A DNA stretch of 64,000 nucleotides from Nemertoderma westbladi. Lineage: Eukaryota > Animalia > Xenacoelomorpha. Below are positions 3,356 to 51,947 of the stretch, piece by piece. The stretch is from assembly GCA_032718475.1 (NCBI GenBank), contig JAUCBJ010007119.1, forward strand, positions 5,793-69,792. The letters run 5' to 3'. The notes under the pieces are model-generated. The model was not told where the DNA came from. It worked only from the letters and a program-made list of their open reading frames with translations, and did not search any database. The position numbers and the translations under genes were made by a program. Within the stretch, counting starts at the first letter, position 1, and each line of letters begins with the position of its first letter.

Positions 3356-3356
3356 G

Positions 3357-18030: not shown

Positions 18031-19204
18031 TGTTCGCGCTTTTAGACCTTTAGCAGTTTAACCTGCCAAATTTAGGTGTCTTCTAGGTTATAAATCGACT
18101 TTAGCCTATGACGAGTATTTGATACACTACATTAGCCGAAGCCAGCCTATGCGCGACCATTCACCCGCTGGATATACCCGGGAGACTGGATTCGGAAGCT
18201 CTAACCTTATTGCGATGTAGGCCTACTGTATTATTCGATTGATCGTTAATATATAATCTCTGACCAATATTATTCACTTTCGGGAAATATTAACAGTTCC
18301 TTTAGGACGTGGCTCTCTAAGTATGTAAACAGAGTTATGACTTACACTAAACACAACGGGATGGTTATTGATTCACGTATAAAGCGCATTCTTTAGGAGA
18401 AGCTTTGTTATCTGTCACAGTCATGCACACTACCGCACAATGCTGCACACCGATCTGCCGACCTTCACTAATTTTAGTCACATATAAAGAGAACAGCAAC
18501 CGACACATGTAGTGCCTATGAAATAGCATTAGATTCACTCCAAAACCAATATAATGTAAGTCGCAATTGCTATATGTAACCGGTCTCTTACCTTCAGTAT
18601 ATCAAGAAGATTGGGGTTTTATGATTATTTATCGATATTATCCAAATATAACAATATTCCATCAACTGATACAATTAATAACCGACAGTAAATAGCAGTA
18701 AAATAATGCGGTGTTTGTAGGTGACAATATGATTTGATTTGGCAGTTTGTGAATTGATAACAGTTATATGTTTCTATGATCAAAGCCGTTCTAATGTTTG
18801 GCTAAAGTCTGCAACACAGAATAATTCCACAGCCGATGTTCTGGCATCAGGAAAAAAGGTAAACATAAACCATAACGCATTGCGCGATTTCCCGGAGGCT
18901 TCTGTACAAATAAAATGAAAATCGCTCTGATTGGTCGACCGAACAAAGAACAAAGAAAAAGTTACACGTGTACATATCAGCTGATAGATGTCGTCATCTG
19001 AACTTATACTGTACTAAGAGTATTTTGGCGTATTGCGACATAAAATTGCTAGTTATGTCCGCTAAAGTACACATACAGAAGAAATGGCTTTTTATGTCCA
19101 CTAAAACACCGGTACAGTAAGGAAACGGCTTTTTATGTCCGTTAAAACACCTACAGAGTACTTTGCGGGGAAAATAACCAGCTAATTCCGCAAAAGCCTT
19201 TACA
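18031..19204 (-). repeat. 3' LTR of copy 2
   Basis: Direct repeat of 35592-36765. Confidence 0.97.
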
Positions 19205-19212
19205 CCGCTCCC
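19205..19212 (-). promoter_or_regulatory. Polypurine tract (GGGAGCGG); same sequence at 39039-39046 in copy 3
   Basis: Purine-rich run immediately upstream of the 3' LTR on the minus strand. Confidence 0.7.
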
Positions 19213-21104: not shown

Positions 21105-21147
21105 ACCACGTACGCGTTTCGACCTTACTGGGTCTCATCAGCGTGGT
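21105..21147 (-). ncRNA. Type I hammerhead ribozyme (minimal, palindromic stem III)
   Basis: ACCACG-CTGATGA-GACC(CAGTAA)GGTC-GAA-ACGCGT-A-CGTGGT: all core nucleotides and stems I and II are present. Confidence 0.85.
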
Positions 21148-21255
21148 GTCGGATTCGAACCTGGGACCTCGAGGTGGAAGCCGAGACTGGGTGAGGTGGG
21201 GGCCTAGTGGTTGTAGTCTCGGCTTCCACCTCGAGGTCCCAGGTTCGAATCCGAC

Positions 21256-21298
21256 ACCACGCTGATGAGACCCAGTAAGGTCGAAATGCGTACGTAGT
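21256..21298 (+). ncRNA. Type I hammerhead ribozyme, mirror copy with two substitutions
   Basis: ACCACG-CTGATGA-GACC(CAGTAA)GGTC-GAA-ATGCGT-A-CGTAGT. Confidence 0.75.
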
Positions 21299-24200: not shown

Positions 24201-24519
24201 AGGAGCTTTATTGTACTTTAATAAGTATGGACATTTCATCTTACTGTAGTCACGTATTTATAATGTACTATGGACAGTAAGGAAAGAGAAAAAGAATTAT
24301 TTCTCGCCGTCGCACTAAATATATAATATAGAAGTAATTAAGTAATAAACGCAAATATATATATGGCACTAATCTACTAAATAATCGCTAAAATAACATT
24401 CTACTAAATAAAATTAAAGAAAACGATTATAATAAAATTACATAATAATACATACCTAAATATAAAAATAATGAAGACAGATATCAAATAATATAGTCAC
24501 ACACCCACTCCAGACGCTG

Positions 24520-27500: not shown

Positions 27501-30500
27501 ATCACAGGTTTAAATAACTTCGATTTACTCGCCCGGATTTTAGGTTTTACTTTCTCCGCTCCCTTGGCCTGTCTAATCTCCGCTGTAGTAAGATGAGGAG
27601 GCCATTCATCCTCTTCTTTGCTTAGGAAGTCGGGTCCACCTAACCAGTCTGGAGTATCTATCAGTTCTTGTGGAGTTGCTCCCCTGGAGGCGATGTCTGC
27701 TGGATTAATCGTTCCGGGGCAATGTCTCCATTGATCTATCTTCGTGCGACTAAGTATAATGGCTACTCTGTTGGTAACGAAGACGCTGAACTGACAGACT
27801 TCATTGGTTATATACTCCAACACGAGTAAAGCATCGGTCCAATAGACAGTTTTTTCCAGTGGGTAGTCGATCTGTTCTGTTACATTCCGGCCGATGGCTG
27901 TAGCATATAGAGCCGCCTTTAACTCCGCTCGAGGAACTTTCAACTTGTTGTTTATCAAGGCCTTAGAGGTAACCAAGGCGATCTTAATTCCATCCGGAGT
28001 TTCAACTCTCAGGTAGGCTACTATACCTATTCCCATATCGCTGGCGTCTCCAAACACATGGAGTTGATAGGAATACGTAGGGAGAACATGACCAAAATAT
28101 GAACAGGTAATTATAAAGTTCTCGATGGCTGGTAGAGAATCTTCCCATTTCATCCACTTCCTTAATAGTTCTCCCTTAAGTGGATCGTCCCATGAGTGGT
28201 TTTCAAGCCACATTTGTTGTACTAAACTCCGAGCAATCAATATAACTGGGCTAATAAATCCCAATGGATCGAAATAAGTGCTCAGGATACTTAAACAAAT
28301 CCGTTTAGTCCGAACTGGATTATCTCACTGTTTTAGCTGGAAAAACAGGATATCTCTCTCTGTGTCCCATTTCAAACCAAGTGTCTTGGTTTCTGGAAGA
28401 TCGTCTTTGATCAGGTCTAGATCTTTAACTCCTCGATCTTCTACCGGGATCGATTCCAGAAACTCACGGGAGTTGCTGGTGAATTTAGTTAATCGAAATC
28501 CACCTCTTTTTAAGCACTCTACCGTTCCTTTGGCGACATCAATGGCTTCTTCCACTGATGGGAGGGACTGTAAATTGTCGTCCATGTATATATCCCGTTT
28601 GATGTTGTCGATCACCTCTTTAGAGAAGGCGTCCCGGTTGTCATCAGCAGTGGTTCGCACCACTGAGCAGGCGTTTGAAGGGCTTGAGATGATCCCAAAA
28701 GCCTGGATGGTCATCCAGTACTCCACCAGTTTCTGGTTGAGGTCTCCTTCAGGCCACCACAGAAATCGTAGGCTGTCTCGATCCCTATCCAGCGCCTTGA
28801 CTTGTAAGAACATGCCTTCTATATCAGAGGCGAAAGTGATTGAATATTGTCGTAATCTTAAGAGTATTCCCAACAAGGATTGGAGTAAGTTGGGTCCTGG
28901 CAACAACTCGGAATTAAGGGATTGGCCCATGTAGAGGGCGGAGCCGTCAAATACTACCCGGACTTCATTGGGTTTACCGGGTTTGGGAACATAATGATGT
29001 GTTAGATAGAACGTTCTCTCAGTTATGGGTGTTTCCTCCGGTACTCGCTCCGCATATCCCTTGTTAATAAATTTCTTCAACTGAGTCTTGTACATTTCCT
29101 TAGCTGAAGCATTTGCCGTAAGGCGTCGATGTAGTTGCGCAATTCTTTTCTCCGCCAAGGGTCGGTTGTTTATAAATTTAGGTTCTCGCTTTCGAAATGG
29201 TAGACCGATTTCATATCTACCTTGATCTTTAAGAAAACGTGTAGTTGTCTCCTGGATCTGCTTGGCTCTTTCTTCTTCTACCGATAGGGCCTTATCGTAG
29301 GAATTGTGCTCTACACCCTCTTGAGTAAAGAATCGTACGGCGTGTTCATCCCGAGTCTTCGCGTTGTAGCGATCTATTACGTCATTCAGTTCGTCGTTAT
29401 AGTCGACTTGTCCTGATGGACGAATGAGTTGACATAGGTTCACTTGGTTTTGCCAAGTTTCGTTTTCCGTAAGGAGGTCAATGTTATTCTCCTCGTCGAA
29501 GAGTTGGTGGATATCGTCATTATCTGAGGAGTATGGTGTTCCCTCAGTTGGGTCGTCCACCTCACTGCTCTCCGCTTCCCATTCACTTACTTGGTAGACC
29601 CGTTCTTTGGGTAACCTTTCCATGAGAGTTCTACGGGAAGGGCCAGTAAAGTACCAACCTACTCTAGTTCTTCCCGCATAGGCTTGTAGTGGTTGCGGTT
29701 GAGCAGGCCGTTTCTCCAATGTCTCAAGCACCTCATGCGCATTTTGGCCGATGAGTATTTGCACTCCAGGGTAGTCTGTGTTGAATCTAGGTATCTCAAG
29801 CTGCTGGGTGAAATCGTCCTCCTCCCAGTTATAAGGTTCCACTTGGTTGGTAGCGAAGTTCTTTATCGCCACCATTTTTACTGACCTTATACTGTGTTCT
29901 CCTAGTTCATCCTGGGGGGTGGACAACGCACCTACATAGTAATCTGCAATTACTGTAGATTTCCAAACCTGCATAATTCCTGACATGTTTAACTTAGTTC
30001 GGAACTTGGGTTGTCCAGCAAAGATGTCTTCGGCTAGTTCTTTGTCAATGAATGTTCCTGTGCTGCCGGAGTCAAGAAGGGCATTCACTATATAACTTTT
30101 TCGTGGCCCGTGGACTCTCAACTGCACTACGGGAAATTCTCGGATTCCTACATTTGAAGTTGGTGCTTTCCAAGATGGTTGTCGGTCAGGAGTAGTTAGG
30201 GGGGCTCACTGTCGGTGTCCTTTTCATACGTAAGTGCTCGATACACTGCGGTATTTATTAGGTAACAGGATTCGTTTTTGTCGGAGAATTCGTCCGTATA
30301 GAATCCTTCCATCTCAGAACTTTGGTCAGTGTCGTTCACATCACTGAATTGGACATGTAGTTCGGACTCACTTACCTGACTCGGGCTGTTTCGTTCGAAT
30401 TCAGTGTGCAACAAGATATGATGTTTTGCGCCGCACTTTGCACACCTTGCGTCGGAGTAACAGGTTCGCCGTTGGTGTCCTTGTCTGAGGCAATTATAAC

Positions 30501-33500
30501 ACAACCGCTTATCCCACATGACTTCACGTCTATCCTTTAATGATTTCTTTAGGAATTCATCACACACATTCAAACGGTGGGGCCCGTCACACAGCGCACA
30601 TTTCGGTTTGATGTTACTTACTTTACTTTGAGTAACATTGTGCACACTCATTCTTTCTTCGGGCTTTCTTACATGAATTCTCTTAGGAGACGTAGGAGGA
30701 GTTTTTCTTACCTGTTCTCTCCTGTCATTGATTCGAGACTTGAATTTACTTACGTCTTTAGGCGTTTTGTTGACATAATAAGATCTTTCAGCGTCTTTCC
30801 CGCTGTCCTCTTCTTGAGAAGCCTGGCTTTCGCCATCGTCGGTATAACACACTGGTGTTACCTTTCTCCTAGAAACGGGTTTCTCACTTACCTTATTTTC
30901 CGGTGTCTTCTCTCTGGACTGCTTTAGGAGCTGTAATTTTACTTCTCCATCTAAGAATTACATGAGATCAGCCATGGTAGGGTCTCGTCGTTGTTGTTCC
31001 ATCATATATAACACTTTCTTATCCCAGCGTGTACCTACTCCACCCTTTGGTAAAGTAGAGGCCACGGCTCCAATAACCATAGAACTCTGATATTCATGAG
31101 ACTTACCTAGCCAATCTAATTGTGTACAGATCTCCTGAATCTCATCGGAAAACTCTATAATCCCGCTGCTAATGAACTTTCGGGGCGCTACCAATTTTGC
31201 ATACAAATACCTAGCTATGTTATTCCTATTACCATACCTGATGTTAAGAGTATCCCAAACTTGTCTTAATCCATCTGGATGTCCAATAAACTTTAACGCC
31301 ATTAACTTGGGAGATCCTTCCAAGCACTCGATGAGGAATCTAAGTTTCTCTCCGATAGATAACACAGAGTTCTGTATGTTATCTATGTAATATTCATTAA
31401 AAGGTAACCATTTCATCTCATTTCCATTGAACTTGACGATCTCACCTACCTTTACCACTTGACGGGCTTCGGTTCTAGCCATTTGACACGTAAAACTTTC
31501 TTGGGCCATTGTGTTATTTAATATCGAGCTATCGGTATATAAATTTCTCGGATTATGATCAGGTCTATATGGAATATCATTGTCAACAGGTTTATAATTA
31601 CCCTTAATAGGGTTTACTATAGGAGTTTCTACTTCACTAGCAGTATAGATGCGTGTAGGCTCCACACCTTGCGCATGAAATACTTCAGACCTAACAGGTT
31701 GACACATTGTTACCGGGGTTGGTGGTATACCCCTTTGGGTATTCACCAACCTATCGCGTTCCAATGCGATACTCTGCTGCACCTCTTGCAACTCTAACCT
31801 ACTTTCCCTTACCGTGCCCTTGAACTGCTGAACAGTTCCTTCCATCTCCCGGACCTGCTGAGAGGAGCACTTACGGTGTTCCCTCAACTGCCCGAGCAGA
31901 AGACCCATCTCTCGTCGTCCCTCCTATACCCACTCTACCGCCGAAGCGGGAGCCGCCAACATAGTAGCGGGCGGACGAGGGACAACGGGCAACAAATCAT
32001 TGATATTTCGCTCGGAGTCCAGGACAGGAACCGTCTCAGGGGTTGTTCTGCTGGGCACAGGTAGTTTTGTGCTGTGCAAAGGGAATTTAGAGGTAGGTTC
32101 TGGGAGTACAGGTGTCTCTATCACCGAAGGGGTGGCTTCGAGAACAGGCCTAATTATTTCAGGCTCATCTACTATAGTAGGGAGTCTTTCTATTTTAATA
32201 ATTTGGTCTGTGGGTTCTGTACTACCTAAGTCTGTGCTAGCTAGTTGCCTTCTAACAGCTGGGGGCAAATCAGGCAATTTCTGACGGTGGGACATTCTTC
32301 TACGCCTACTTAGACGAGACCTACTTCCTCCGCCTTCAGGATCGGTGGTATCGCCTTCATCAGAGGATGTAAATCCCTGTCATTTGGGAGTAGATCGACT
32401 CATCATCTGCATTTGACTAGCTGTTAACTGTTTATTTATGCAGTCTTGATTCTCTTGAATATTTTCCAACTCTAGTTGGGTGGTCTCTTCAGATGCTATT
32501 CGTTCCGCTTCTGCCACCGCTATCTTTCTTTCCGCTTCTATTGCTGCAGCTGCCGCTTTTGCCTCTGCCGCTGCTTCTGCCGCCTTTCTTTCCGCTTCTG
32601 CCGCTGCCATTGCCGCTGCTGCTGTCTTTCTGTCTTCTATACGTTTTTTCTTTACTTGTTCTTCTTGGACCCTAGCGATGCGGAGTCTTTCATCAAATTT
32701 AGCTTGGTTCGCAGCTAACATTTCCGCATCGATTGCATCCAACACAAGCTTGGCTCCTTCACTATTAGGGCGAAGTCCAGACAGCCGTCTCCTCAACTCT
32801 TCGTCACCTAGGAATCATTGATAGTCTGACAGATAGATGTCAATAGCGTCTCACCCGCTGGAACCAAGTCTTTACGGCAACTTGCAACGACGTGTCTTGT
32901 CTTCTTTTCGAAGCTTCCTCAAAGGCCGATAGGATTAGTCTGATTCTTAGAATTCTTTCTCTAACTTGATAAAGCAGCTCTTCCTGCTCTTGAGGTCCTT
33001 GGGGTTGTCGAAACAGTTGTTCCTCTAATCGCTCTAAAGAGCTGAAGAATCCCTGTACATATCCTGCTGCCGACCTCTTCCACACAGCTGGATCACTAGT
33101 GTCTTTTGTCACTCCCACCCTGTGTATGTCTTCCCAGGCAGCTTCCGATAAGTCAAACGGGAGTCCGGGTCCGGGGAAGTTCCATTGCGACTCGACAATA
33201 GACTTCAGTTCCTCCCTTGTGTATCCCGCATAACTGTCCTTGGTCGATCGCTTACTTCTCACCCAATCAATTTGGTGTTCCTCCACCGCAATCAATACCC
33301 TAGTGAGTACGGCTGCAGGAAGAATGAGAAGGGGATCCGAATAAACCGCATCTGCCATCTTTGCTCCTCGCTCGGGTGTCAACTCTACAGTATCCGAACT
33401 ACTGGAGCTATCGGGCCGCTGAGAAATAAGTTCTTGGCTAGGGTGTTGCTGCTGTTTAACAGCTGCTTCCTGGTCCCGCTTGACCTGAGCCCGAGTGCCT

Positions 33501-33676
33501 ATGATAGACCTACGGTGTTGGACTAGCCTAGGGTCTGATAGCACTACTGGAGGGATGATCTTTCTTACAGTAGGAGGTGAGTTGAACTTTGGTCTCACAC
33601 GTTCCACACTCCTGTCTGGGTCACAGATGGTTGTATCTAGGAGACTGTCTGACAGGTTTTGCTTTGTGTCAGACAT
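24520..33676 (-). pseudogene. Copy 2 gag-pol polyprotein, fragmented by stops, frameshifts and a group I intron
   Basis: Gag with a triple knuckle (CALC..H..C, CYNC..GH..C, CAKC..HH..LH), protease ALLDSGS, RT YMDD, RNase H VFGDAS...NPADIASRG, integrase HAG..CIPC / GVDLFGP / SDKGTNF / GGSWERLI, and a DUF5641-like tail. Confidence 0.93.
25977..27159 (-). ncRNA. Group I intron (ID-like core, no ORF), 1183 nt, in the RNase H-integrase linker of copy 2
   Basis: The 5' exon ends in U, paired with G in P1 (TCAGTT|ACCC : GGGTGACTGA). P3 is GGCGGGTG/CACCCGCC and P7 is GACTG/CAGTC, with S element AATGTACAGTC. The intron ends in G, and excision restores KISY-QEHEE in frame. Confidence 0.85.
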
Positions 33677-35580
33677 GTTTGTTTGTACAGTTGAATGCCT
33701 ACTGCTATATTACAGTTAAAGCAAGTCTAGTAATTCAGTATCAACTGTTAGCCTAGTAATTAATTACCGATATCGTTACTCAGTGTAACGTGATATATTT
33801 ACAATATATTAGAGTACCGGTATACACTTATAGTATATATATAAGTATTATTACAGACTAGGTTTGTCACAGAATACCGGTATATAATTTCAGCGCAAAT
33901 ATATATAAATATATAATAAGCCTATCGTGAATACCGGTATACAGCTTACACTTATAGTATATATAAGTATAATTATAGACTAGAATTAATTACAGAATAC
34001 CGGTATATAATTTCAGCACAAATATATAGAAATATATAATAAGCCTATCGTGAATACCGGTATATCAATTATTTTAGAATAATTGAATTTCTGAAATTTA
34101 GGGTTACTTGGTTACTTTACTTTACTTTATTACTGTTATTTAAGCAGTAGTCCAACTGACATTAAGACCTAATTGTTGTAAGACAGGCCTACTATTTTAT
34201 AAATCGGTTTGAGTTGATTTATAATATATATACCCGTTTAATGGGTTTTTGTCAATATTTGAAATAAATGTTATTATTTCTGGGAAAGAGTCACTACACA
34301 GAAGCTCTACACTCTCAGTGAAGTGCTACTTGTTGGACACTAAAACAAATAATTCTAATTTACCTAAGTTACTTAATACTACAAATTACGTACAATTACG
34401 GGGTGAGATTACAATCTCTAAATAAACACAAAAAATTACACGTACGAATTTTTTTTTAGGGTAATTTTACTAGAAGTCTACAAGCCAGCCTAACAAAGGG
34501 TTAGAATATCTGGTTCTTACAAACGGACAGGATACTACGGTATTTGAAAGTAATAAAGCAGTAGTAAATATACTGCGTTGTCCAGATAGGAAAAATACCA
34601 CCGTCTGACGACTTATAGCCATAGCGCTATAAGTACTACGTTATGTATCACGGAGTGTTCCTACCTAGAAGTTAATTACCGCGGCCTAACAGAGCCAACG
34701 TGCCTATCAACCACTTTACAACACAAATATACTGCCTACACACTAATTACCTTCGGAAAGCACTGTACACTAAACCCTAAATTAGGTACAAGTACTTATA
34801 CAACAAATAACCAGCAGTTAAAAATACTTGAACAGCTAAATGAACCACGGTATCTGCCGGAGTGACCAACGCATAAAATCTCCAGTCTTTACCTACGCCA
34901 AACAGCCCTGATGTAGTACCGGGGTTAATTTAACTATAACGGTATGGATAACAAGCACAATTACTGTAGGAATAAACTTGGGGGTATGAATGTTGCGAAT
35001 AATCGCATAAACTCTGAATAATAAATATTACGCTACCCTTACAGACTACACAAACAAAATACAGACCAAACGCTGGCAGACTACTATCAAGCCTAAATAA
35101 ACTACAGTATATGCAGACTCCGAAATGGTTAGTTAGTATGCGTTCTAACCGAGTAGTACGACTTATTCTTTCAGGGGGGATTTACCTTACAGCACTGGAT
35201 GCCCACCACTTTCCTAACTAGTACTTTATCGGACATACACTCTACATACACTGCAATCTCTTCAGACTTAACAACAGTCAGACAACAGTCTAGCCTACAA
35301 ATTACCTGTACAATCTGAGCAGGCTTACACGTCTTCTGCTCAATATTAACTTACAAATAAATAAAACTGACAGAAATAGGCCTAAGTAAAATCCCAATAA
35401 AAAACCAGGCGTCCCCGATTAAATATTAAGACCTACCGGTATATAATTATCTAAATCGAATAATATTGCTGTACTTGTACTGCTGTAAGTACCGGTTCGG
35501 GTAGTTAGGCAGTCAGGCCTACTGGTTGCCGGTCGACCAGTACTTTTGCCTTTTTATTGCCTACGTGCAATAAAGAAGCT

Positions 35581-35591
35581 ATAACTGTTAT
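35581..35591 (-). promoter_or_regulatory. Non-tRNA PBS position of copy 2 (ATAACAGTTAT)
   Basis: Abuts the 5' LTR and is complementary to 36318-36328. Confidence 0.6.
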
Positions 35592-36765
35592 TGTTTGCGC
35601 TTTTAGACCTTTAGCAGTTTAACCTGCCAAATTTAGGTGTCTTCTAGGTTATAAATCGACTTTAGCCTATGACGAGTATTTGATACACTACATTAGCCGA
35701 AGCCAGCCTATGCGCGACCATTCACCCGCTGGATATACCCGGGAGACTGGATTCGGAAGCTCTGACCTTATTGCGATGTAGGCCTACTGTATTATTCGAT
35801 TGATCGTTAATATATAATCTCTGACCAATATTATTCACTTTCGGGAAATATTAACAGTTCCTTTAGGACGTGGCGCTCTAAGTATGTAAACAGAGTTATG
35901 ACTTACACTAAACACAACGGGATGGCTATTGATTCACGTATAAAGTGCATTCTTTAGGAGATGCTTTGTTATCTGTCACAGTCATGCACACTACCGCACA
36001 ATGCTGCACACCGATCTGCCGACCTTCACTAATTTTAGACACATATAAAGAGAACAGCAACTGACACATGTAGTGCCTATGAAATAGCATTAGATTCACT
36101 CCAAACCCAATATAATGTAAGTCGTAATTGCTATATGTAACCGGTCTCTTACCTTCAGTATATCAAGAAGATTGGGGTTTTATGATTATTTATCTATATT
36201 ATCCAAATATAACAATATTCCATCAACTGATACAATTAATAACCGACAGTAAATAGCAGTAAAATAATGCGGTGTTTGTAGGTGACAATATGATTTGATT
36301 TGGCAGTTTGTGAATTAATAACAGTTATACGTTTCTATGATCAAAGCCGTTCTAATGTTTGGCTAAAGTCTGAAACACAGAATAATTCCACAGCCGATGT
36401 TCTGGCATCAGGAAAAAAGGTAAACATAAACCATAATGCATTGCGCGATTTCCCGGAGGCTTCTGTACAAATAAAATGAAAATCGCTCTGATTGGTCGAC
36501 CGAACAAAGAACAAAGAAAAAGTTACACGTGTACATATCAGCTGATAGATGTCGTCATCTGAACTTACACTGTACTAAGAGTATTTTGGTGTATTGCGAC
36601 ATAAAATTGCTAGTTATGTCCGCCAAAGTACACATACAGAAGAAATGGCTTTTTATGTCCACTAAAACACCGGTACAGTAAGGAAACGGCTTTTTATGTC
36701 CGTTAAAACACCTACAGAGTACTTTGCGGGGAAAATAACCAGCTAATTCCGCAAAAGCCTTTACA
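35592..36765 (-). repeat. 5' LTR of copy 2
   Basis: Direct repeat of 18031-19204, followed by TSD GGGTA. Confidence 0.97.
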
Positions 36766-37897: not shown

Positions 37898-39038
37898 TGT
37901 TCGCGCTTTCAGACCTTTAGCAGTTTAACCTGCCAAATTTAGATGTCTTCTAGATTATAAATCGACTTTAGCCTATGACGAGTATTTGATACACTACATT
38001 AGCCGAAGCCAGTCTATGCGCGACCATTCACCCGCTGGATATACCCGGGAGACTGGATGCAGAAGCCTTGACCTTATTGCGGTGTAGGCCTACTGTATTA
38101 TTCGACTGATCGTTAATATATAATCTCTGACAAATATTATTCACTTTCGGGAAATATTAACAGTTCCTTTAGGACGTGGCGCTCTAAATATGTAAACAGA
38201 GTTATGACTTACACTAGACACAACGGGATGGCTATGGATTCACGTATAAAGCGCATTCTTTAGGAGATGCTTTGTTATCAGTCACAATCATGCACACTAC
38301 CGCACAATGCTGCACACCGATCTGCCGACCTTCACTAATTTTAGTCACATATAAAGAGAACAACAACCGACACATGTAGTGCCTATGAAATAGCATTAGA
38401 TTCACTCCAAAACCACTTTAATGTAAGTCGCAATTGCTATATGTAACCGGTCTCTTACCTTCAGTATATCAAGAAGATTTGGGGTTTTATGATTATTTAT
38501 CGATGTTAACCAAATATAATAATATTCCATCAACTGATATAATTAATAACCGACAGTAAATAGCAGTAAAAATGCGGTGTTTATAGGTGACAATATGATT
38601 GGTGTTGAGTTGGTATGGTTTGTGGTTTGATAACAGTTATACGTTTCTATGACCAAAGAAAACTAATGTTTGGCTAAAGCCTGAAACACAGAAATTCCAA
38701 AGCCGGTCTTCTGGCTGTGGACAAAATACACATACTGACTGAATTGCATGAGTTTCTGTATACAATCTCCAACACAGAGTCAAAAAACGCTCTGATTGGT
38801 CGACCGAACAAAGAACGAACAAAGAACAAAGAAAAAGTTACACGTGTACATATCAGCTGTTAGATGTCGTCATGGTAACTACACTGTATCAAGAGGATTT
38901 TGGCTTATTGCGACATAAGATCGCTAGTTATGTCCGCTAAAGTACACATACAGAAGAAATGGCTTTTTATGTCCGTTAAAACACCTACAGAGTACTTTGC
39001 GGGGAAAATAACTAGCTAGATCCGCAAAAGCCTTTACA
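37898..39038 (-). repeat. 3' LTR of copy 3 (lacks one 41-bp U3 repeat unit)
   Basis: Direct repeat of 50766-51947. Confidence 0.95.
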
Positions 39039-39116
39039 CCGCTCCCAGAAAATGGGATTTAATTCTATAAAATATAAAAAATCACAGTTTCTAAAATATA
39101 AAAATACTCTAAACAG

Positions 39117-40668
39117 TTAGTTTTTCTTGCGCGGACGGCATTTACGCAGTTTTTTGGGGCAAGCAAGAGTCCTTTTCTCTTTGGGGCGAGCCACTTTACT
39201 AAGAGGGCTATAACCCTTGGGTGAAGGGTGCAATACAATTGCATCAGAAGGTTTAGGGTTACGGTCGGTGTATCCGCCAGTCGAGGTACCCGGTTGATCG
39301 GTATCAACCTCAGTGGAACGAGGTCGAACAACCTTGAGAGCGCGTTTTGAGACAGCAGCTCTTACTGGTCCCTGACGGGTCGTCTGAACGATAGCGGTAG
39401 GTGGACCGTGTATAGTGAGAAATTTCCTCGGTTTGATGATTCTTTCCAACTCGCGTTCTCGGGCTCTATCGGAATCGATATGCTTCTCCTCGAGCTGATT
39501 TTCCTCCGCTTGTTGTTGAAAACATTTGTCCAAACTCTTGCAGAAAGTAGAGCCGTCCAAGTTCAATATCTTCTTAGAGATTCTGGATTTTCTGATCGAA
39601 CTGAGACAAAGCTAATTCGTCCACCGCTTGGACCTGTTGCTGCAATTTACGTTTCTCTAAACAATTGTAGGTTCCTTTTCCGATCTTTTGAAGAATAGTG
39701 TCCAACACGTTTCGTACAACTCTCTCCTCCGCCTTGGTGACAAGTTGTATCGGGTTAAACCGGGACAATGATACGGTTGAATGACGATATTAGATGTCCG
39801 CGTCCCAATCCGGCTAGGTAAGATTGGCGAATATTTAGGGAGCCCACAACCGGAGTGCCACCGACTAATTATTCGGGTAACACTAGATCTTTGAACAGTG
39901 AGTACAGTTCGGGAGGATCCGTGATACTATTAGGATCAAGAGTCTGAAGTCTAACTAGGAAATGAGGAGGTCTGACTGAGTACTCCGGAACTCTGATCAT
40001 AGGTTTATTTAAGGATCGTTTGAGTCGAGCGAGCGTAGGTGATACATCGAACAAGTTTCGCTCGAAACTCCCGTAAATATAGCGAGTAAAACCGTGTTTA
40101 AAGCAACGTCTCCGCGGATGTTTATGTCTTTCCGTTTGTTGGTTGGGTCTTGGGCATTCATCGCAATAATACCAAAGACGCACATCTTGTAGGGGAAACG
40201 CGGGTGATATTTATTCGGTTTTACAATGTTTCTCTCAAGAATTCCAAATATACGTTGGAGTTACCGCGTTTATTCGGTTCTTTAACGTCTTCTCTTTCGA
40301 GTCGATTTCGAATAGAATTTTCGCATTCGATTCTCAATTTATCGTTCCGACTCAGCTGGGTATGATATTTAAATAGGACCATTTCCCTTTCGGTGTCGAT
40401 ATCGTCCGTATCGTGTAAATTTGATAGGATGGCCAGTAGTTAAGACGTCCATATACGTACCATTACGATGCGTATAGCGAGCGGTGAATTTTCTATAGTC
40501 CAATTCACGCGTAAGTTGCTCCTGGGACATTGGCGGTTCGATATAACGACCATCGTCCTCCGTAGTAGTTGGACCAGCGTCGCCGCGTATCAAGCTATCG
40601 ACAAACGCTTGTAAAGGTAGAGTATATCGCTCCCTGATACCAAGATCATCTTCTATCAACTCAGTCAT
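39117..40668 (-). pseudogene. 3' accessory ORF of copy 3 (frameshifted; shares both ends with copy 2, different middle)
   Basis: The MTELIEDDLG... start and ...RARERELER...KKLRKCRPRKK end are shared with copy 2. The middle contains YYCDECPRP...HKH...CFKHG. Confidence 0.65.
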
Positions 40669-42398
40669 ATCTGCTACATGAGTTTATCAATATTATAATG
40701 AGTTTATATTTAGGCTAGCGGGCGTCGCTGCCTACCCCTCTTGGCCCCCGGACAGCGCAAGATACTCAGCGCTGGTGTACTTTCGCCGATGTGCCTATCG
40801 CCAACGTCGTAGCTGCACAACGACCACAACAACCAGCGCGAGTCACTCCACCGTCCGTCCCAAAGGCTTAGATTTACTTCAGGTTCTTACTGGAGAGTTA
40901 GGGCTACTTTCACAATTGCGACTCGCTACTGTAAACACACTTTAGTAGTAACATTCACCTATAAACGCACAAATTCCACACAACTGTCACAAACCGTACA
41001 CATTCGGGCCATTTTTCCGTTAGTCAGTGCCTTCCAGAATGCCACGTTATTATTGTGTATCCTTGGATACTAGCAGTGTGCTATTTACTCCCTATGCTAT
41101 TCAATGGGGCAAGCTTTCTATTGTTCTTTAACTCACTTCTAATTCTAGCGTGGTTGTTGCCATGGTGACATTATGGAAAGCTAGCAGTAGAATTAGGGTA
41201 ATTCTCATGCATACAGATCTGGGATGCTATTTAATAGTAATTCTTTAATTGTCAATATTCCTCTTTATACATGATGTTATGAATTTTATCGGCTATTGAC
41301 TATATATTGGAGATTCTCGCACACTAATATACTTAATAGGGTGAATCTCCGCTCCCATGATCTATTAATTTATGGAATTTTGGGAATGTTATAAATTGTA
41401 TAAAAATGACAATTTATCAAATTCATTAAAAGATGAATTTAAATTTATTCCCGTAAATTTTATTATTTAATATTAAATAGACACAATTTTATTCAAGAAC
41501 ATGTCTGGGGACTGGGATCCTTGATTCTAGGAAATTGGTCTTTTTAAGAATATCGGTAAGTGCTACGATATCTTAATAGTCTAGAATTTTAAAGGATCTA
41601 AAATTTGGCAGATTTTATAAATATTAATAGTTAATATTTAGGATGGGCACCAGTTTATTCCAGAACTTGTCTGGGGACGTTAACCACTGATTCTAGAATT
41701 TTGTCTTTTAAGTATATTGGTGGGTGCCGCGATATCTTAATCGACTAGAATTACAGATGGTCAAAGGGTTTAACAGATTTATTTTGCGTTTTACGCTACT
41801 GTTAAAGGGACATCACGCTACTATATGTATTATTTAATATACGGTATGAGAGCAATATCGCAAGAAGCAATGTCAGTGAGAAGAGGCAAGTCATTTCCAA
41901 GGTCTACCCAGAGCTTGGTTTAGCCGAGACACGAGGATCTGAACTTTGCATTCCTAATACTCTACTTACCAATAATACTTGAATATAGTAGGAGCTTTAT
42001 TGTACTTTAATAAGTACGGATATTTCATATTACTGTAGTCACGTATTTATAATGTAATACAGACAGTAAGGAAAGAGAAAAATAATTATTTCTCGCCATC
42101 GCACTAAATATATAATATATAAGTAATTAAGTAATAAACGCGAATATATATTGCACTAATCTACTAGATAATCGCTAAAATAACATTCTGCTAAATAAAA
42201 TTAAAGAAAACGATTATAATAAAATTATATAATAATACATACATAAATATAAAATAATAAAAACAAATATAAAATAATATAGTCATACACCCACTCCAGA
42301 CGTTGTTACGTTGGGGAGTCTCTAGATGTTTGTTGGATTAGGGAGGTGGTCGTGGGAAGAGTATCTTGCCTTGCATAGTTTCCGGACAGTTCTCGGTC

Positions 42399-45300
42399 TC
42401 ATTCCAGTAAACATAAACGACCAACTGGGCGATTGAGCTGCTGTGTCTCGAAGACAATTCCAGGTTTCCTCTTCGTCCTGGAATAGTGACGATAGAAACA
42501 TCGCTTCAAATACACGACGGCCTTACAAAGCCGATTCCAGGATCTATAGTGGTCCATCGCTCCCGGCAGGAGAGGTGAGAGTCCCGGCGAGACGTCTGGT
42601 GTTCCAGATCTCCAGTCTCTCTCTCTGATCTCCACAACAGATCGGTTCGCGGTGGGGGAGTTTAGATCCACAGCGTCGTCCCTGGCAATGTGTAATACAG
42701 ACAGATCTATCACGGGTTTAAATAACCTTGATTTACTCGTCCGGGTTTTAGGTTTGACTTTCTCCGCTCCCTTGGCTTGTCTAATCTCAGCCGTGGTAAG
42801 ATGGGGAGGCCATTCATCTTCTTTACTTAGGAAGTCGGGTCCACCTAACCAGTCTGGAGTATCTGTCAGTTCTTGAGGAGTTGCTCCTCTGGAAGCGATG
42901 TCGGCTAGATTAATCGTCTCGGGGCAATATCTCCATTGATCTACATTAGAGTTAATATCGTCATTATCTGAGGAGTATGGTGTTCCCTCAGTTGGGTCAT
43001 CCACCTCACTGCTCTCCGCTTCCCATTCACTTATTTGGTATACCCGTTCTTTTGGTATGCTTGCGTCCTTCTGGGCTCCTCCCCGAGGCGCACCCACGAG
43101 GCGGACGCTGTCCCACCACCCCTGGGGCCAGTCTGACTCCATTTTTATCAGACCGGGCCGGAGGGTAGCCCGATGCTTCCCGGGTTCAATTTTCAATCCC
43201 CCGATCACACCGGCACAGCTCGTCGGTGTAGCCAGATGGTCGGCAACTGTCAACTTACTGTGGCCTGACTGTACATTGAGCCAACTCAGAGAGTCAACCG
43301 GCGGGTGGACCAGTCGATAGTGATCGAGCATCAAGGTCGCCCTTGAGCCAAACCGATGGTCTTGTCCCAAGTGGGCTTGCGCTACCCACATGGAATATTG
43401 ACACGTTTTCACCCGCCTCGCCGGCAGTATTGAGGGGAAGTTGGTTCCGCAAACAATACTGACTAGCTCGAAAGCTAGGAACAAGTAATCACTTACCAGT
43501 CACTGTACACGTGTACTCAACAGATGCTCACGAAATCAAGTACACAACGGTAAACACAAAATCGGACACATACCATGCACACACAGAGGACATAATCGGG
43601 AAAGACAAATCGGTGACAAAATTAGAGGGGACAAAATTGTATCGACTGATAAAAAGTCGAGAGTACCTTATTTTGCCGTCAGGGCAAAATAACTTTGTGT
43701 GCACAAAGTATGCTGGGGCGCAGTAAAGATATGGTCCTACTAATAACCAGCGGCGTCTAGACCAACCGGCAAGGTTTCCCACACTCACTCGCAGTGGCCA
43801 TACACACTCACGTATACCACGTACCCACAGCAACAGAAAGCTCAAGCAAACTGCCACTGATCATCCACACACAAACCACAGATTCCAGAGTATCATTCAC
43901 TCAGACCACACTACCACCATCCCCTCCTTGCAGCGGATATTCCGGGTGCTACCTCCATTCCAATAGTAGTACCAACAGAATCATCAGAATCCTGCCCATT
44001 CCGATGCAACACCTCCATTCCAATAGTGCTACCCTGGGAAAAGACACGTTTCGGCAACCGATCGGAGACAGCAAAGAGTCTGGTCAACTCATACATACCA
44101 AACATAGACCTACCACATAAACCACATAGACCACAGATCACACTAAGCCACCACCCCTACTGTGTACAGGACTGGCAGTACGGCAACAGGCCGACTAGAC
44201 GGTACCACGGCACCATGTTGATTCATGGTTCGTAAGACACGAGGGCCTTCAGTATCTCCCTTGCACTATACATGGGATTTAACGTGCCCCCAGACCCTCA
44301 CGAGTCCGCTGCCGCCTGTTAAAGGCACCCCTATAGAGACCTCACCTCTTTAGGTACCTTTCCATGAGAGTTCTACGGGAAGGGCCAGTAAAGTACCAAC
44401 CTACTCTAGTTCTTCCCGCATAGGCTTGTAGTGGTTGCGGTTGAGCAGGCCGTTTCTCCAATGTCTCAAGCGCCTCATGCGCATTTTGGCCGATGAGTAT
44501 TTGCACTCCAGGGTAGTCTGTGTTGAATCTAGGTATATTAAGCTGCTGGGTGGAATCGTCCTCATCCCAGTTATAAGGTTCTACTTGGCTGGTAGCGAAG
44601 TTCTTTATCGCCACCATTTTTACTGACCTTATGCTGTGTTCTCCTAGTTCATCCTGGGGGGTGGACAACGCACCTACATAATAATCTGCTATTACTGTAG
44701 ATTTCCAAACCTGCATAATTCCTGACATGTTTAACTTAGTTCGGAACTTGGGTTGTCCAGCAAAGATGTCTTTGGCTAGTTCTTTGTTGATGAATGTTCC
44801 TGTGCTACCGGAGTCAAGGAGGGCATTCACTATATAACTCCTTTCAGGTCCGTGGACCCTCAACTGCACTACGGGAAATTCTCGGATTCCTACATTGGAA
44901 GTTGGTGCTTTCCAAGATGGTTGTCGGTCAGAAGTAGTTAGGGGGAGCTCGCTGTCGGTGTCCTTTTCATACGTAAGTGCTCGATACACTGCGGTATTTA
45001 TCAGGTAACAGGATTCGTTTTCGTCGGAGAATTCGTCCGTATAGAATCCTTCCATCTCAGAACTTTGGTCAGTGTCGTTCACATCACTGAATTGGACATG
45101 TAGTTCGGACTCACTTACCTGACTCGGGCTGTTTCGATCGAATTCAGTGTGCAACAAGATATGATGTTTTGCGCCGCACTTTGCACACCTTGCGTCGGAG
45201 TAACAGGTTCGCCGTTGGTGTCCTCGTCTGAGGCAATTATAACACAACCGCTTATCCCACATGACTTCACGTCTGTCCTTTAGTGATTTCCTCAGGAATT

Positions 45301-48300
45301 CATCACACGCACTTAAACGGTGGGGCCCGTCACACAGCACACATTTTGGTTTGATGTTACTTACCTTACTTTGGGTAACGTTGTGCACACTCGTTCTTTC
45401 CTCGGGCTTTCTTACATGAATTCTCTTAGGAGACGTAGGAGTTTTTCTTACCTGTTCTCTCCTGTCATTGGTTTGAGACTTGAATTTACTTACGTCCTTA
45501 GGCGCTTTGTTGTCATAGTAAGATCTTTCAGTGTCTTTCCCGCTGTCTTCCTCTTGAGAAGCCTGGCTTTCGCCGTCGTCTGTATAGCACACTGGTATTA
45601 CCTTTCTCCTAGAAACGGGTTTCTCACTTACCTTATTTTCCGGTGTCTTCTCTCTGGACTGCTTTAGGAGCTGTAATTTTACCTCTCCATCTAAGAATGA
45701 CATGAGATCAGCCATGGTAGGATCTCTTTGTTGTTGTTCCATCATATATAACACTTTCTTGTCCCAGCGTGTACCTACTCCACCCTTGGGCAAATAGATG
45801 CTAAGGCTCCTACAACCATAGAATTCTGGTATTCATGAGACTTACCTAACCAATCTAGTTGTCTACAGATCTCCTGAATCTCGTCGGAAAACTCTATAAT
45901 CCCGCTGCTAAGAAACTTTCGGGGCGCCATTAATTTCGCATATAAATACCTAGCTATGTTAGTCCTATTACCATACCTGATGTTTAGTGTATCCCAAACT
46001 TGTCTTAATCCATCTGGATGTCCAATAAACTTTAACGCCATTAACTTGGGAGATCCTTCCAAGCACTCGATGAGGAATCTAAGTTTCTCTCCGTTAGATA
46101 GCACAGAGTTATGTATGTTATCTTTATAATATTCATTAAAAGGTAACCATTTCATCTCATCTCCATTGAACTTGACGATCTCTCCCACCTTTACCGCTTG
46201 ACGGGCTTCGGTTCTAGCCATTTGACGCGTAAAACTTTCTTGGGCCATCGTGTTATTTAATATCGCGTTATCGGTATATAAATCTCTCGGATTATTATCA
46301 AGTCTATATGGAATATCATCGTCAACAGGTTTATAATTACCCTTAATAGGGTTTACTATAGGAGTTTCTACTTCACAAGCAGTATAGATGCGTGTAGGCT
46401 CCACACCTTGCGCATGAAATACTTCAGACCTAACAGGTTGACACATTGTTACCGGGGTTGGTGGTATACCCCTTTGGGTATTTACTAATTTATCGCGTTC
46501 TAACGCGATACTCTGCTGCACTTCTTGCAACTCTAACCTGCTTTCCCTTACTGTGCCCTTGAACTGCTGAACAGTTCCTTCCATCTCCCGCACCTGCTGA
46601 GAGGAGCACTTACGGTGTTCCCTCAGCTGCCCGAGCAGGAGACCCATCTCCCGTCGTCCCTCAGCTACCCACTCGACCGCCGAAGCGGGAGTCGCCAACA
46701 TAGTAGCGGGCGAGCGAGAGACGACGGGCGATAAATTCTTGATATCTCGCTCGGCGTCCAGGATGGCTTCGGACTCGGGAACAGTCCTACTGGGCACAGG
46801 TAGTTTCGTGCTGTGCAAAGGGAATTTAGAGGTAGGTTCTGGGAGTACAGGTGTCTCTATCACCGAAGGGGTGGCTTCGAGAACAGGCCCAATTATTTCA
46901 GGTTCATCTACTATAGTAGGGAGTCTTTCTACTTTAATAATTTGGTCTGTGGGTTCTGTACTACCTAAGTCTGTGCTAGCTAGTTGCCTTCTAACAGCTG
47001 GGGGCAAATCAGGCAATTTCTGACGGTGGGGCATTCTTCTACGCCTGCTTAGACGAGATCTATTTCCTCCGCCTTCAGGATCGGTGGTATTGCCTTCATC
47101 AGATGATGTAAATCCCTGCCTTTTAGGAGTAAATCGACTTATCATCTGCATTTGACTAGCTGTTATCTGTTTATTTATATAGTCTTGCTTCTCCTCAAGA
47201 TTTTCCAACTCTAGTTGGGTGATCTCTTCAGACGCTCTTCGTTCTGCTTCTGCCACGGCTCGCTTTCTTTCCGCTTCTGCTGCTGCCACTGCCGCTTTTC
47301 TTTCCACTTCTGCCGCTGCCTCTGCCGCTTTTCTTTCCGCTTCTGCCGCTGCTGCTATCTTTCTGTCTTCTATACGTTTTTTCTTTACTTGTTCTTCTTG
47401 GACTCTAGCGATGCGGAGGCGTTCATCAAATTTAGCTTGGTTCGCAGCTAACATATCCGCATCGATTGCGTCCAACACAAGCTTGGCTCCTTCATTATTA
47501 GGGCGAAGTCCAGACAGCTGTCTCCTCAACTCTTCGTCACCTACAAATCGTTGATAGTCTGACAGATAGATGTCAATAGCATCCCTCTTATGCGGTTTTT
47601 CTGCTGTCACTTCACTTTCCACTTGGGAAAAGGTAGCGTCTGTTGATTCTCCATGGGTTGAGCGCTCAGCCAGCTGAGATTTCCACTGGGCAGTTCCTTG
47701 AACTTGGAGACTCACCCACTGAAACCAAGTCTTTATGGCAACTTGCAACAAAGTGTCTTGTCTTTTTTTCGAAGTCTCCTCAAAGGCCGATAAGATTAGT
47801 CTGATTCTTAGAATTCTTTCTCTAACTTGATAAAGCAGCTCTCCCTGCTCTTGAGGTCCTTGAGGTTGTCGAAACAGTTGTTCCTCTAATCGCTCCATAG
47901 AGCTGAAGAATCCCTGTATGTATCCTGCTGCTGACCTCTTCCACACAGCTGGATCGCTGGTTTCTTTTGTCACTCCCATCCGGTGTATGTCTTCCCAGGC
48001 TGCTTCCGATAAGTCAAACGGGAGTCCGGGTCCAGGGAAATTCCATTGCGACTCGACAATAGACTTCAGTTCTTCCCTTGTGTATCCCGCATAACTATCC
48101 TTGGTCGATCGCTTACTTCTCGCCCAATCAATCTGGTGTTCCTCCACCGCAATCAATACCCTAGTGAGTACGGCTGCAGGAAGAATGAGAAGGGGATCCG
48201 AATAAACCGCATCTGCCATCTTTGCTCCTCGCTCGGGTGTCAACTCTACAGTATCCGAACTACTGGAGCTGTCGGGCCGCTGAGAAATAAGTTCTCGGCT

Positions 48301-48567
48301 AGGGGGTTGTTGCTGTTTGACAGCTGCTTCTTGATCCCGCTTGACTTGAGCCCGAGTGCCTATGACAGACCTACGGCGCTTCACTAACTTTGCAAATTGC
48401 AAAATTGCTTCTACTAACCTAGGTTCTGACACAGCTACTGTAGGGGTTGCCTTTCTTACAGTAGGAGGGGTCTCAGACCTCGGTCTGGGATTCTCTATAC
48501 TCCTATCTGAGAAACAGACTGTTGTTTCTAGGAGACTATCTGACAGAGTTTGCCTTGTGTCAGCCAT
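42399..48567 (-). pseudogene. Copy 3 gag-protease plus pol remnants
   Basis: 930-aa gag (48567-45775), a frameshift into a 483-aa knuckle-protease ORF (45793-44342), then the intron and RNase H/IN remnants. Confidence 0.9.
43058..44355 (-). ncRNA. Group I intron (ID-like core, no ORF), 1298 nt, in the protease-RT linker of copy 3
   Basis: P1 is AAAGGT|ACCT : GGGTGCCTTT with U-G at the splice site. The core (43267-43420) matches the copy 2 intron. Excision restores MERLPKERVYQ exactly as at the empty site in copy 2. The terminal base is A, not G. Confidence 0.82.
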
Positions 48568-50754
48568 GTTTGATTGTACATTTGAATGCCTACTGCTATA
48601 TTACAGTTAAAGCAAGTCTAGTAATTCAGTATCACTGTTAGCCTAGTAATTAATTACCGATATCGTTACTCAGTGTAATGTGATATATATACACAATATA
48701 TTAGAATACCGGTATACATTTATAGTATATATATAAGTATTATTACAGACTAGGTTTGTCACAGAATGCCGGTATATAATTTCAGCACAAATATATATAA
48801 ATATATAATAGGCCTATCGTGAATACCGGTATACAGCTTACACTTATAGTATATATAAGTATAATTATGGACTAGAATTAATTACAGAATACCGGTATAA
48901 TTTCAGCCTAAATTTATAGAAATAAATATAATAAGCCTATTGTAAATACCGGTATGTCAATTATTTTAGAATAATTGAATTTCTGAATTTTTAGGGGTTA
49001 CTTGGTTACTTTACTTTACCTTATTACCGTTATTTAAGCAGTAGTCCAACTGATATTTAGACCTAATTGATGTATGACAGGCCTACTATTTTATAAATCA
49101 GTTTGAGTTGATTTATAATATGTATATACCCGTATAATGGGTTTTGTCAATATTTGAAATAAATGTTATTATTTCTGGGAAGGAGTCACTACACAGAAGC
49201 TGTGCGCTCTCAGTGAAGTGCTACTTATTGGACACTAAAACAAATAATTCTAATTTGCCTAAGTTACTTAATACTACAAATTACGTACAATTCGGGGTGA
49301 GATTACAATCTCTAAATAAACACAAAAAATTACACGTACGAATTTTTAGGGTAATTTTACAAGAAGTCTACAAACCAGCCTAACAAAGGGTTAGAATATC
49401 TGGTTATTACAAACAGACAGGATACTACGGTATTTGAAAATAACAAAGCAGTAGTAAATATACTGCGTTGTCCAGATAGGAAAAATACCACCGTCTGAAG
49501 ACTTATAGCCGTATCGCTATAAGTACTACGTTATGTATCACGGAGTGTTCCTACCTAGAAGTTAATTACCGCGGCCTACCAGAGCCAACGTGCCTATTAA
49601 CCACTTTACAACACAAATATACTGCCTACACACTAATTACCTTCGGAAAGCACTGTACACTAAACCCTAAATTAGGTACAAGTACTTATACAACAAATAA
49701 TCAGCAGTTAGAAATACTTGTACAGCTAAAAGAACCACGGTATCTGCTGGAGAGACCGGGGCACAAAATCACCAGTCTTTACCTACGCCAAGCAGCCCTG
49801 ATGTAGTACCGGGGTTAATTTAACTATAACGGTATGTATAACAAGCACAATTACTGTATGAATAAACTTGGGGTTGTGAATGTTGCGAATAATCGCATAA
49901 ACTCTGAATAATAAATATTACGCTACGCGTACAGACTACTCAAAAAAAATACAGACCAAACGCTGGCAGACTACTATCAAGCCCAAACAAACTACAGTAT
50001 ATGCAGACTCCGAAATGGTTAGTTAGTATGCGTTCTAACCGAGTAGTACGACTTATTCTTTCGAGGGGATTTACCTCACAGCACTGGAAGCCCCTACGTT
50101 CCTAACTAGTACTTTATTGGACATACACTCTACACACACCGCAATCTCTTCAGACATAACAACAGCCAGGCAACAATCCAGCCTACAAATTATCTAAATA
50201 AGAAATATTACGCTACCCGTACAGACTACACAAACAAAAATACAGACCAAGCGCTGGCAGACTACTATCAAGCCTAAACAAACTACAGTATATGCAGACT
50301 CCGAAATGGTTAGTTAGTATGCGTTCTAACCGAGTAGTACGACTTATTCTTTCGAGGGGATTTACCTCACAGCACTGGAAGCCCCTACATTCCTAACTAG
50401 TACTTTATCGGACATACACTCTAAACACACTGTAATCTCTTCAGACCTAACAACAGTCAGACAACAGTCCAGCCTACAAATTATCTGTACAATCTGAGCA
50501 GGCTTACATTTCTTCTGCTCAATATTAACCTACAAATAAATAAAACTGATAGAAATAAGTAAAATCTCAATAAAAAACCAGGGCGGCCGTCCCTGATTAA
50601 ATATTAAGGCCTACCGGTATATAATTCTCAAAATCAAATAATACTGTTGTACCTGTACTGCTGTAAGTACCGGTCCAGGTGGTTAGGTAGTCAGGCCTAC
50701 TAGGTACCGGTCGACCGGTACTTCAGCTTTATTGCCTACTGCAATACAGAAGCA

Positions 50755-50765
50755 ATAACTGTTAT
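50755..50765 (-). promoter_or_regulatory. Non-tRNA PBS position of copy 3 (ATAACAGTTAT)
   Basis: Abuts the 5' LTR and is complementary to 51498-51508. Confidence 0.6.
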
Positions 50766-51947
50766 TGTTCGCGCTTTCAGACCTTTAGCAGTTTAACTTG
50801 CCAAATTTAGATGTCTTCTAGATTATAAATCGACTTTAGCCTATGACGAGTATTTGATACACTACATTAGCCGAAGCCAGTCTATGCGCGACCATTCACC
50901 CGCTGGATATACCCGGGAGACTGGATTCGGAAGCTTTGACCTTATTGCGGTGTAGGCCTACTGTATTATTCGACTGATCGTTAATATATAATCTCTGACA
51001 AATATTATTCACTTTCGGGAAATATTAACAGTTCCTTTAGGACGTGGCGCTCTAAATATGTAAACAGAGTTATGACTTACACTAGACACAACGGGATGGC
51101 TATGGATTCACGTATAAAGCGCATTCTTTAGGAGATGCTTTGTTATCAGTCACAATCATGCACACTACCGCACAATGCTGCACACCGATCTGCCGACCTT
51201 CACTAATTTTAGTCACATATAAAGAGAACAACAACCGACACATGTAGTGCCTATGAAATAGCATTAGATTCACTCCAAAACCACTTTAATGTAAGTCGCA
51301 ATTGCTATATGTAACCGGTCTCTTACCTTCAGTATATCAAGAAGATTGGGGGTTTTATGATTATTTATCGATGTTAACCAAATATAATAATATTCCATCA
51401 ACTGATATAATTAATAACCGACAGTAAATAGCAGTAAAAATGCGGTGTTTATAGGTGACAATATGATCGGTGTTGAGTTGGTATGGTTTGTGGTTTGATA
51501 ACAGTTATACGTTTCTATGACCAAAGCCTACTAATGTTTGGCTAAAGCCTGAAACACAGAAATTCCAAAGCCGGTCTTCTGGCTGTGGACAAAATACACA
51601 TAATGACTGAATTGCATGAGTTTCTGTATACAATCTCCAACACAGAGTCAAAAAACGCTCTGATTGGTCGACCGAACAAAGAACGAACAAAGAACAAAGA
51701 AAAAGTTACACGTGTACATATCAGCTGTTAGATGTCGTCATGGTAACTACACTGTATCAAGAGGATTTTGGCTTATTGCGACATAAGATCGCTAGTTATG
51801 TCCGCTAAAGTACACATACAGAAGAAATGGCTTTTTATGTCCACTAAAACACCGGTACAGTAAGGAAACGGCTTTTTATGTCCGTTAAAACACCTACAGA
51901 GTACTTTGCGGGGAAAATAACTAGCTAGATCCGCAAAAGCCTTTACA
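50766..51947 (-). repeat. 5' LTR of copy 3
   Basis: Runs TGTTCGCG...TTTACA, followed by TSD AACTG. Confidence 0.95.

Follow-up and report, generated by a model that had tools for sequence, protein, structure and literature searches.

Three minus-strand copies of a single LTR element lie in the window, a stretch of 64,000 nucleotides of Nemertoderma westbladi DNA. The pol regions of copies 2 and 3 are interrupted by related inserts at different places. What are these inserts, and how did one of them come to occupy two sites of the same gene, each with a guide that fits it? The group I introns of basal metazoans and of sharks are mitochondrial. According to the available text of PMC10964413, metazoans have no group I introns except in basal lineages and five sharks; in that of PMC3679873, nuclear group I introns are said to be exclusive to rRNA genes, and the whole pathway of reverse splicing, reverse transcription and integration is said to lack evidence. 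The accessible part of PMC8557442 mentions group I introns solely as a source of endonucleases. No description of a group I intron in an LTR retrotransposon was found in searches on retrotransposons, animal nuclear genomes and iridoviruses in the literature outside subscription journals.

The element belongs to the BEL/Pao group. Between its LTRs lie Gag (DUF1759), protease, RT, the Pao RNase H region (Peptidase_A17), integrase and DUF5641, a target duplication is present, and the Pfam families found (DUF1759, Peptidase_A17, Integrase_H2C2 and DUF5641) are the BEL/Pao set. Named pol homologues come from fish, corals, molluscs, echinoderms and other animals at 32–47% identity, and in the homologue and representative protein searches no pol protein exceeded 50% identity. 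Each of the two host copies is a complete and young integration. The RT/RNase H and integrase parts of copy 3 are deleted, and gag-pol of copy 2 is broken by several stops and frame breaks. The positions of the features are given in Table 1.

Table 1. Positions of the introns, their parts and their host elements in the window
Feature	Position	Strand	Remarks
BEL/Pao copy 2	18031..36765	-	LTRs 1.5% apart (18/1174), 5-bp target duplication
BEL/Pao copy 3	37898..51947	-	LTRs 0.9% apart (10/1141), 5-bp target duplication
Sister of the copy-3 group I intron, in BEL/Pao copy 2	25977..27159	-	1183 nt, RNase H-integrase linker, last base G
Group I intron in BEL/Pao copy 3	43058..44355	-	1298 nt, protease-RT linker, last base A
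Copy-3 site in its empty state, in copy 2	29610..29619	-	Cut between 29614 and 29613
5′ exon end, copy 3	44356..44361	-	AAAGG, and U pairing with G in P1
3′ exon start, copy 3	43054..43057	-	TACC, P10 partner, offset by one base
P1 extension hairpin and the fixed guide bases (GGU)	44326..44355	-	Predicted P10 with 3′ exon ACC
Variable five-base guide CCTTT, copy 3	44321..44325	-	Opposite exon AAAGG-U; polymorphic in public runs
Guide ACTGA, sister intron in copy 2	27125..27129	-	Complementary to exon 27165-27161 (TCAGT-U)
P2-region domain	44177..44320	-	Common to viral and environmental relatives
Peripheral insertion	43495..44176	-	651 nt in copy 3, 535 nt in copy 2; no conserved ORF
Catalytic core P3-P4-P5-P6-P7-P8	43266..43417	-	Alignment of 34 cores and independent model
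P3, copy 3	43417-43410 with 43307-43300	-	
P7, copy 3	43317-43311 with 43271-43266	-	
P9 region and 3′ end	43058..43265	-	Motifs common to relatives

Other features of the window were also recorded. A tRNA-type primer site is absent from the BEL/Pao copies (35571–35593 and 50745–50767, minus strand); the bases that follow the 5′ LTR, 13 in one copy and 11 in the other, complement a segment some 436 nt within the LTR, which makes self-priming a candidate. Copy 1 carries a 2.8-kb unrelated insertion (3354–6169) just after the start of gag, with an internal 470-nt tandem repeat, and the model of 27 relatives described below detected no intron-family core in it. In copy 2, an extra 542-codon ORF (19283–20911) precedes the 3′ LTR, with no Pfam match and weak zinc-knuckle look-alikes, and beside it is a 586-nt palindromic insert (20909–21494). 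A bHLH-type ORF (13076–13675, minus strand), followed by a 21-nt tandem repeat, has its best matches in a limpet protein (76%) and NeuroD1.

An earlier note on this DNA had described one intron family at two sites of pol, and related inserts do lie in the protease–RT and RNase H–integrase linkers; they are 95% and 90% identical in two blocks flanking a variable stretch. The note had also put an empty equivalent of the copy-3 site at about 29612 in copy 2, where the cut can now be placed exactly (Table 1). Contigs skipping precisely 43058–44355 (1298 bases) occur in two public DNA runs, three in X1 and four in X3. Both intron boundaries are exact to the base, with neither duplication nor loss, and at 2/2 sites the upstream and downstream ORFs are in phase once the intron length is subtracted. 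The copy-2 linker then has 201 codons, slightly above the range of 116–193 (median 152) in 101 homologues. The copy-3 site falls between the protease motif and the RT of pol, at about residue 197 of P0002, upstream of the best-scoring stretch in 150/150 homologues (starts at 224 or later). The 3′ exon of the sister insert begins with ACC. For the copy-2 site the window offers no empty allele, since the corresponding part of copy 3 has been lost. A target duplication at the junctions was considered and rejected, since the frame would break and the empty allele conflicts with it.

Relatives of the inserts were collected with a 17-base core pattern, which matched 62 loci in viral contigs, 29 of them holding 19 distinct similar cores; a second pattern added metagenome loci and brought the collection to 40 distinct cores in L001–L210. 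The alignment of 34 rows comprises 32 of these 40 cores and the two window cores, with eight near-duplicates left out. A P3-based pattern yielded two loci, both unrelated and rejected, and exact patterns of the intron 5′ end had no match in metagenome or viral contigs.

The aligned rows share a P3/P7 pseudoknot core in the order P3-P4-P5-P6-P7-P3′-P8-P7′, and the P4–P6 domain is present in both window copies. Pairing holds in 98.7% of the 1020 cells of P3–P8, with 12 of the 30 pairs changing on both sides; no shuffled control (0/500) reached any of five measures, and slid controls paired at 27–46%. The invariance of P4, P6 and most of P7 is circular, as these were built into the search patterns. 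P3, P5, P8 and the first P7 pair were absent from the patterns; seven of the nine P3 pairs covary, and the first P7 pair is U-A in 18 rows and A-U in 16. The guanosine-binding G-C pair after the P7 bulge is found in 34/34 rows, both window copies included; among the relatives, the search patterns account for part of this invariance. A model derived from 27 relatives, excluding the window copies and their sister clade, matched both window copies (E 5.6e-25 and 6.1e-22), the next match having E 0.03.

The window gave no Rfam group I match (RF00028 at gathering score), and 2 of 17 family loci match RF00028 below gathering (33.6 and 30.5 bits). That score is a database convenience and not a defining feature; the lineage is group I, at the edge of the Rfam model. 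With a covarying P3/P7 core and an independent model that matches both copies, the group I identity implied by the earlier note is upheld, and the inserts are almost certainly group I introns.

Outside the core, the P2-region insertion is closed by the same 15-bp stem in both copies and is absent from the three relatives aligned. The intron had been said to have no homing endonuclease, and none was detected: the 16 intron ORFs had no Pfam match better than E 0.07. The longest ORF inside the intron has 162 codons and is not common to both copies, and no fused IS transposase or TnpB gene was present among the intron ORFs.

The cores of copies 2 and 3 differ at 4/156 positions, versus a divergence of 6.0% in gag-protease. 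Copy 3 has one core mismatch in P4 and one in P6, and copy 2 has one in P4. In four public runs the bases at 43357 and 43321 are the pairing base at all depth, so the copy-3 P4/P6 mismatches are private and recent, in line with decay since integration. Judged from its letters, with a terminal A and two broken core pairs, copy 3 has probably lost its ribozyme activity. CpG decay is a possible but weak cause of these lesions (CpG ratio about 0.75).

The guide of each copy is perfectly complementary to its own exon, with 5/5 Watson-Crick pairs and a G opposite U. The P1 helix, with a U.G pair at the 5′ splice site in 2/2 copies, is present in the minimum-energy fold of both introns. The bases flanking the guide are conserved (20/20 and 37/40 identical between copies), and in both copies the 3′ exon (T)ACC can pair with the GGU beside the guide (P10), with an offset of one base in copy 3. 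Apart from the offset, which it does not mention, this agrees with the earlier note, which was also right that the guide had changed but not that all five bases had done so, as only three of the five differ. Three random guide changes would all complement the new exon with a chance of about 1/27. Set against the site of the other copy, each guide matches at 2/5 bases in the observed cut registers. The first bases of each intron resemble the start of its own 3′ exon.

Both cuts fall at U/ACC or U/TACC (the slash marking the cut), a motif found at 84 of 17,552 positions, and this U/(U)ACC motif pairs with the fixed part of the guide. The empty allele shows that the match of the copy-3 site to the fixed guide predates the insertion. 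The copy-2 guide and the empty copy-3 site form seven contiguous pairs in a register one base off the observed cut, a fit that was found post hoc (about 3 of 84); its heptamer occurs three times in 17,552 nt of the element. In an unconstrained duplex-energy scan, the empty site ranked 290th and 216th among 4052 U positions, and the scan was set aside as uninformative.

Part of the intron is present in five public runs from four studies, none of which is on record as RNA. The summed contig depth was about 7,000–93,000 in intron bins and 350,000–1,110,000 in flanking pol bins of X1, and 5,000–120,000 and 137,000–815,000, respectively, in X3, which, depth not being copy number, indicates an intron in many copies and in a minority of the elements. 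Further guide variants were present: at least four alleles found in neither window copy, at positions 44321, 44322, 44323 and 44325, each in 4–17 contigs and in two studies. Their shares of the local depth were 45, 12, 20 and 31% in X1 and 44, 17, 21 and 33% in X3. Another run has a single guide-variant contig, for which either site is possible. There is at least one further guide, and probably several. Among the contigs listed, none bridges an intron-exon junction with 31 letters per side, and loose contig ends show that the flank of the copy-3 site varies within the element family.

The relatives interrupt the major capsid, Rpb2 and DNA polymerase B genes of large DNA viruses, and are found also in capsid-like ORFs, which we take to be polinton-like, and in one eukaryotic SSU rDNA. 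In prokaryote genomes, where the model was run on 46 of the 72 loci found by pattern, there was one strong match; the gene that holds it is of the Rpb2 type, as in viral relatives. The lineage had no match in GenBank phages. In the tree (39 rows, 361 columns) the window introns are sister to L070, L111, L124 and L187 with bootstrap 100, and deeper branches are poorly supported. Identity to the copy-2 intron is 67–70% in the sister clade, 63–70% in the capsid-gene group and 53–63% in the rest. A viral origin of the intron is likely on these comparisons, and we infer that a large DNA virus, or an element of that kind, would have supplied the founder.

The guide keeps a constant position across the lineage, before the P2 motif. 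Twenty-six introns have enough flank (25 relatives and copy 3): 17 show five Watson-Crick pairs plus U.G or C.A, three more show five pairs plus G-C, and six fall short. The P1 pairing claimed for the window copies therefore recurs at the same position, at 5/5 in 20/26 introns, while swapped guides passed in 9/632 trials. Guide matching is general in the lineage and is not the mark of one mobility route.

Some relatives have peculiarities of their own. At the predicted 5′ splice site, G-C or C.A replaces U.G in L008, L026, L048, L027, L031, L093, L108, L118 and L160. The four close copies of the sister clade L070/L111/L124/L187 have four different 3′ flanks, that of L070 with a weak RT-thumb match (E 0.0045), and possibly represent a second multi-site family. 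L008/L189, L009, L013, L019, L022, L026 and L052 occupy two sites near the 3′ end of major capsid genes, sometimes in tandem, in a virus group that is presumably iridovirus-like. Major-capsid introns of the lineage may be unannotated in such viruses; four invertebrate iridoviruses are reported to have no group I introns in the available part of PMC4149023. L129 sits in a eukaryotic SSU rDNA, close to its 3′ end, and was not detected by RF00028.

How, then, did the intron reach two sites? It likely moves by reverse splicing into the element RNA and is fixed when the RT of the element copies the unspliced RNA, a route to which we give a little better than even credence. The fuller reading, that a virus-derived ribozyme is a protein-free, RNA-guided parasite of one animal LTR retrotransposon family, combining retargeting by changes in a five-base guide, reverse splicing into many sites of the element RNA and fixation by the RT of the element, might as easily be wrong as right.

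The mRNA of an LTR element is also its genome. Forward splicing would keep pol translatable; fully spliced genomic RNA would therefore give an intron-free daughter, and only unspliced or re-invaded RNA would transmit the intron. Excised intron RNA would bind a target by means of P10 (the fixed GGU), the U.G pair and some of the variable guide bases, and the guide would then be perfected by mutation under selection for splicing. Integrated copies would decay afterwards, like copy 3.

This route is favoured because both sites are variable linkers, a poor ground for a homing endonuclease; because each has the uncommon U/(U)ACC motif, the pairing partner of the fixed guide; and because the copy-2 guide fits the empty copy-3 site over seven bases, one base off. 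In two rDNA introns, a slide by one base has been reported (available text of PMC1299323). Complementarity by itself does not single out reverse splicing, because the relatives in DNA-virus genes show the same, and in the observed cut registers neither guide fits the site of the other copy. Guide matching can be explained by selection alone, and the U/(U)ACC motif and the linker sites can be explained by survival of spliceable insertions. The statement of the earlier note that the intron always lies in sense orientation is correct for both copies, and its "always" rests on 2/2 copies.

The alternative that survives best, though we consider it rather unlikely, is a separate arrival at each site at the DNA level, by a trans-acting endonuclease, by illegitimate recombination, or by separate captures from a virus with sibling introns. 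Only spliceable insertions would survive, the guide would adapt later, and the intron would spread with the element or by gene conversion. The relatives at many DNA-virus gene sites with matched guides are in its favour, as are the endonuclease-less "offspring" introns of Bodo saltans virus, described as probably trans-homing in the accessible part of PMC5871332, and an endonuclease acting in trans is possible. However, the sites are variable linkers, one of them with a flank that varies in the family, whereas the intron sites of the viral relatives are conserved. Only a few bases are common to both sites, and both copies share the long insertion that is missing from the three relatives aligned. 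The intron divergence is, moreover, close to that of the host elements, which fits a move inside the element family.

Still less probable, in our estimate, is that RT switched templates between co-packaged element RNAs at short end similarities and that the guide was rewritten later, perhaps all at once if the P1 hairpin was copied across. The resemblance between the first bases of each intron and its own 3′ exon would serve as the microhomology, and the three guide changes between the copies have no intermediate in the window. P1-extension/P10 pairing would nevertheless lead one to expect the same resemblance, which L129, the relative in rDNA, also shows, and the boundaries are precise to the base. 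That the inserts are dead relics, or a non-catalytic group I look-alike mobile element never spliced in this host, is very improbable: the missing Rfam match, the terminal A of copy 3 and the core mismatches point that way, but the three-position re-matching of the guide, the kept frames, the low-divergence core and the stem-closed insertion imply selection on splicing, and the P4/P6 mismatches of copy 3, absent from four runs, are private and recent.

Reverse splicing into the element RNA becomes testable here, as target RNA, reverse transcriptase and integrase all belong to one element, and the many copies with different guides can be tabulated. If the fuller reading is true, the family would preserve a record, made in nature, of the reverse-splicing pathway from end to end, in numerous nuclear copies that lie outside rDNA. 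A multi-copy group I intron in the coding region of an LTR retrotransposon breaks the pattern of occurrence in rRNA only and of absence from animals, and similar cases may be overlooked, as the lineage is missed by standard Rfam annotation.

Nuclear group I introns outside rDNA have a precedent, because polinton-like viruses (PLVs) of protist genomes, namely cryptophyte and rhizarian PLVs, carry them (available text of PMC12220804). In Bodo saltans virus, polr2a and polr2b contain group I introns, and some giant-virus introns have no endonuclease (available text of PMC5871332). To these published introns the BEL/Pao introns are likened by class, a common lineage being shown only for the viral loci found here, which belong to the same ribozyme lineage at 53–70% identity over trimmed columns. 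Viral loci and BEL/Pao introns alike have the guide before the P2 motif, the P3–P9 motifs and a protein gene as host. Unlike the viral introns, the BEL/Pao intron resides in an LTR retrotransposon of a nuclear genome, in variable linkers, with an insertion of 535–651 nt, and the gene that it interrupts itself encodes a reverse transcriptase.

Like the nuclear rDNA introns (IC1/IE), for which a spread by reverse splicing has been proposed, as these are presented in the available parts of PMC3679873, PMC1299323 and PMC10964413, the BEL/Pao introns are endonuclease-free, have a guide pairing of 4–6 nt and occupy heterologous sites. The heterologous sites of rDNA introns share the 5′ exon, whereas the 5′ exons of the BEL/Pao introns differ and the guide has changed. 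IStrons, in the accessible text of PMC4227781 and PMC10690162, are likewise a partnership of ribozyme and transposon, a group I intron being fused to an IS element, in which self-splicing makes insertion into coding sequence tolerable. IStrons occur in bacteria, have their own transposase genes and are mobile as DNA, whereas the BEL/Pao intron is an ORF-less passenger in a separate retroelement. Its ribozyme class is known, its home had not been described, and its route of mobility can be tested.
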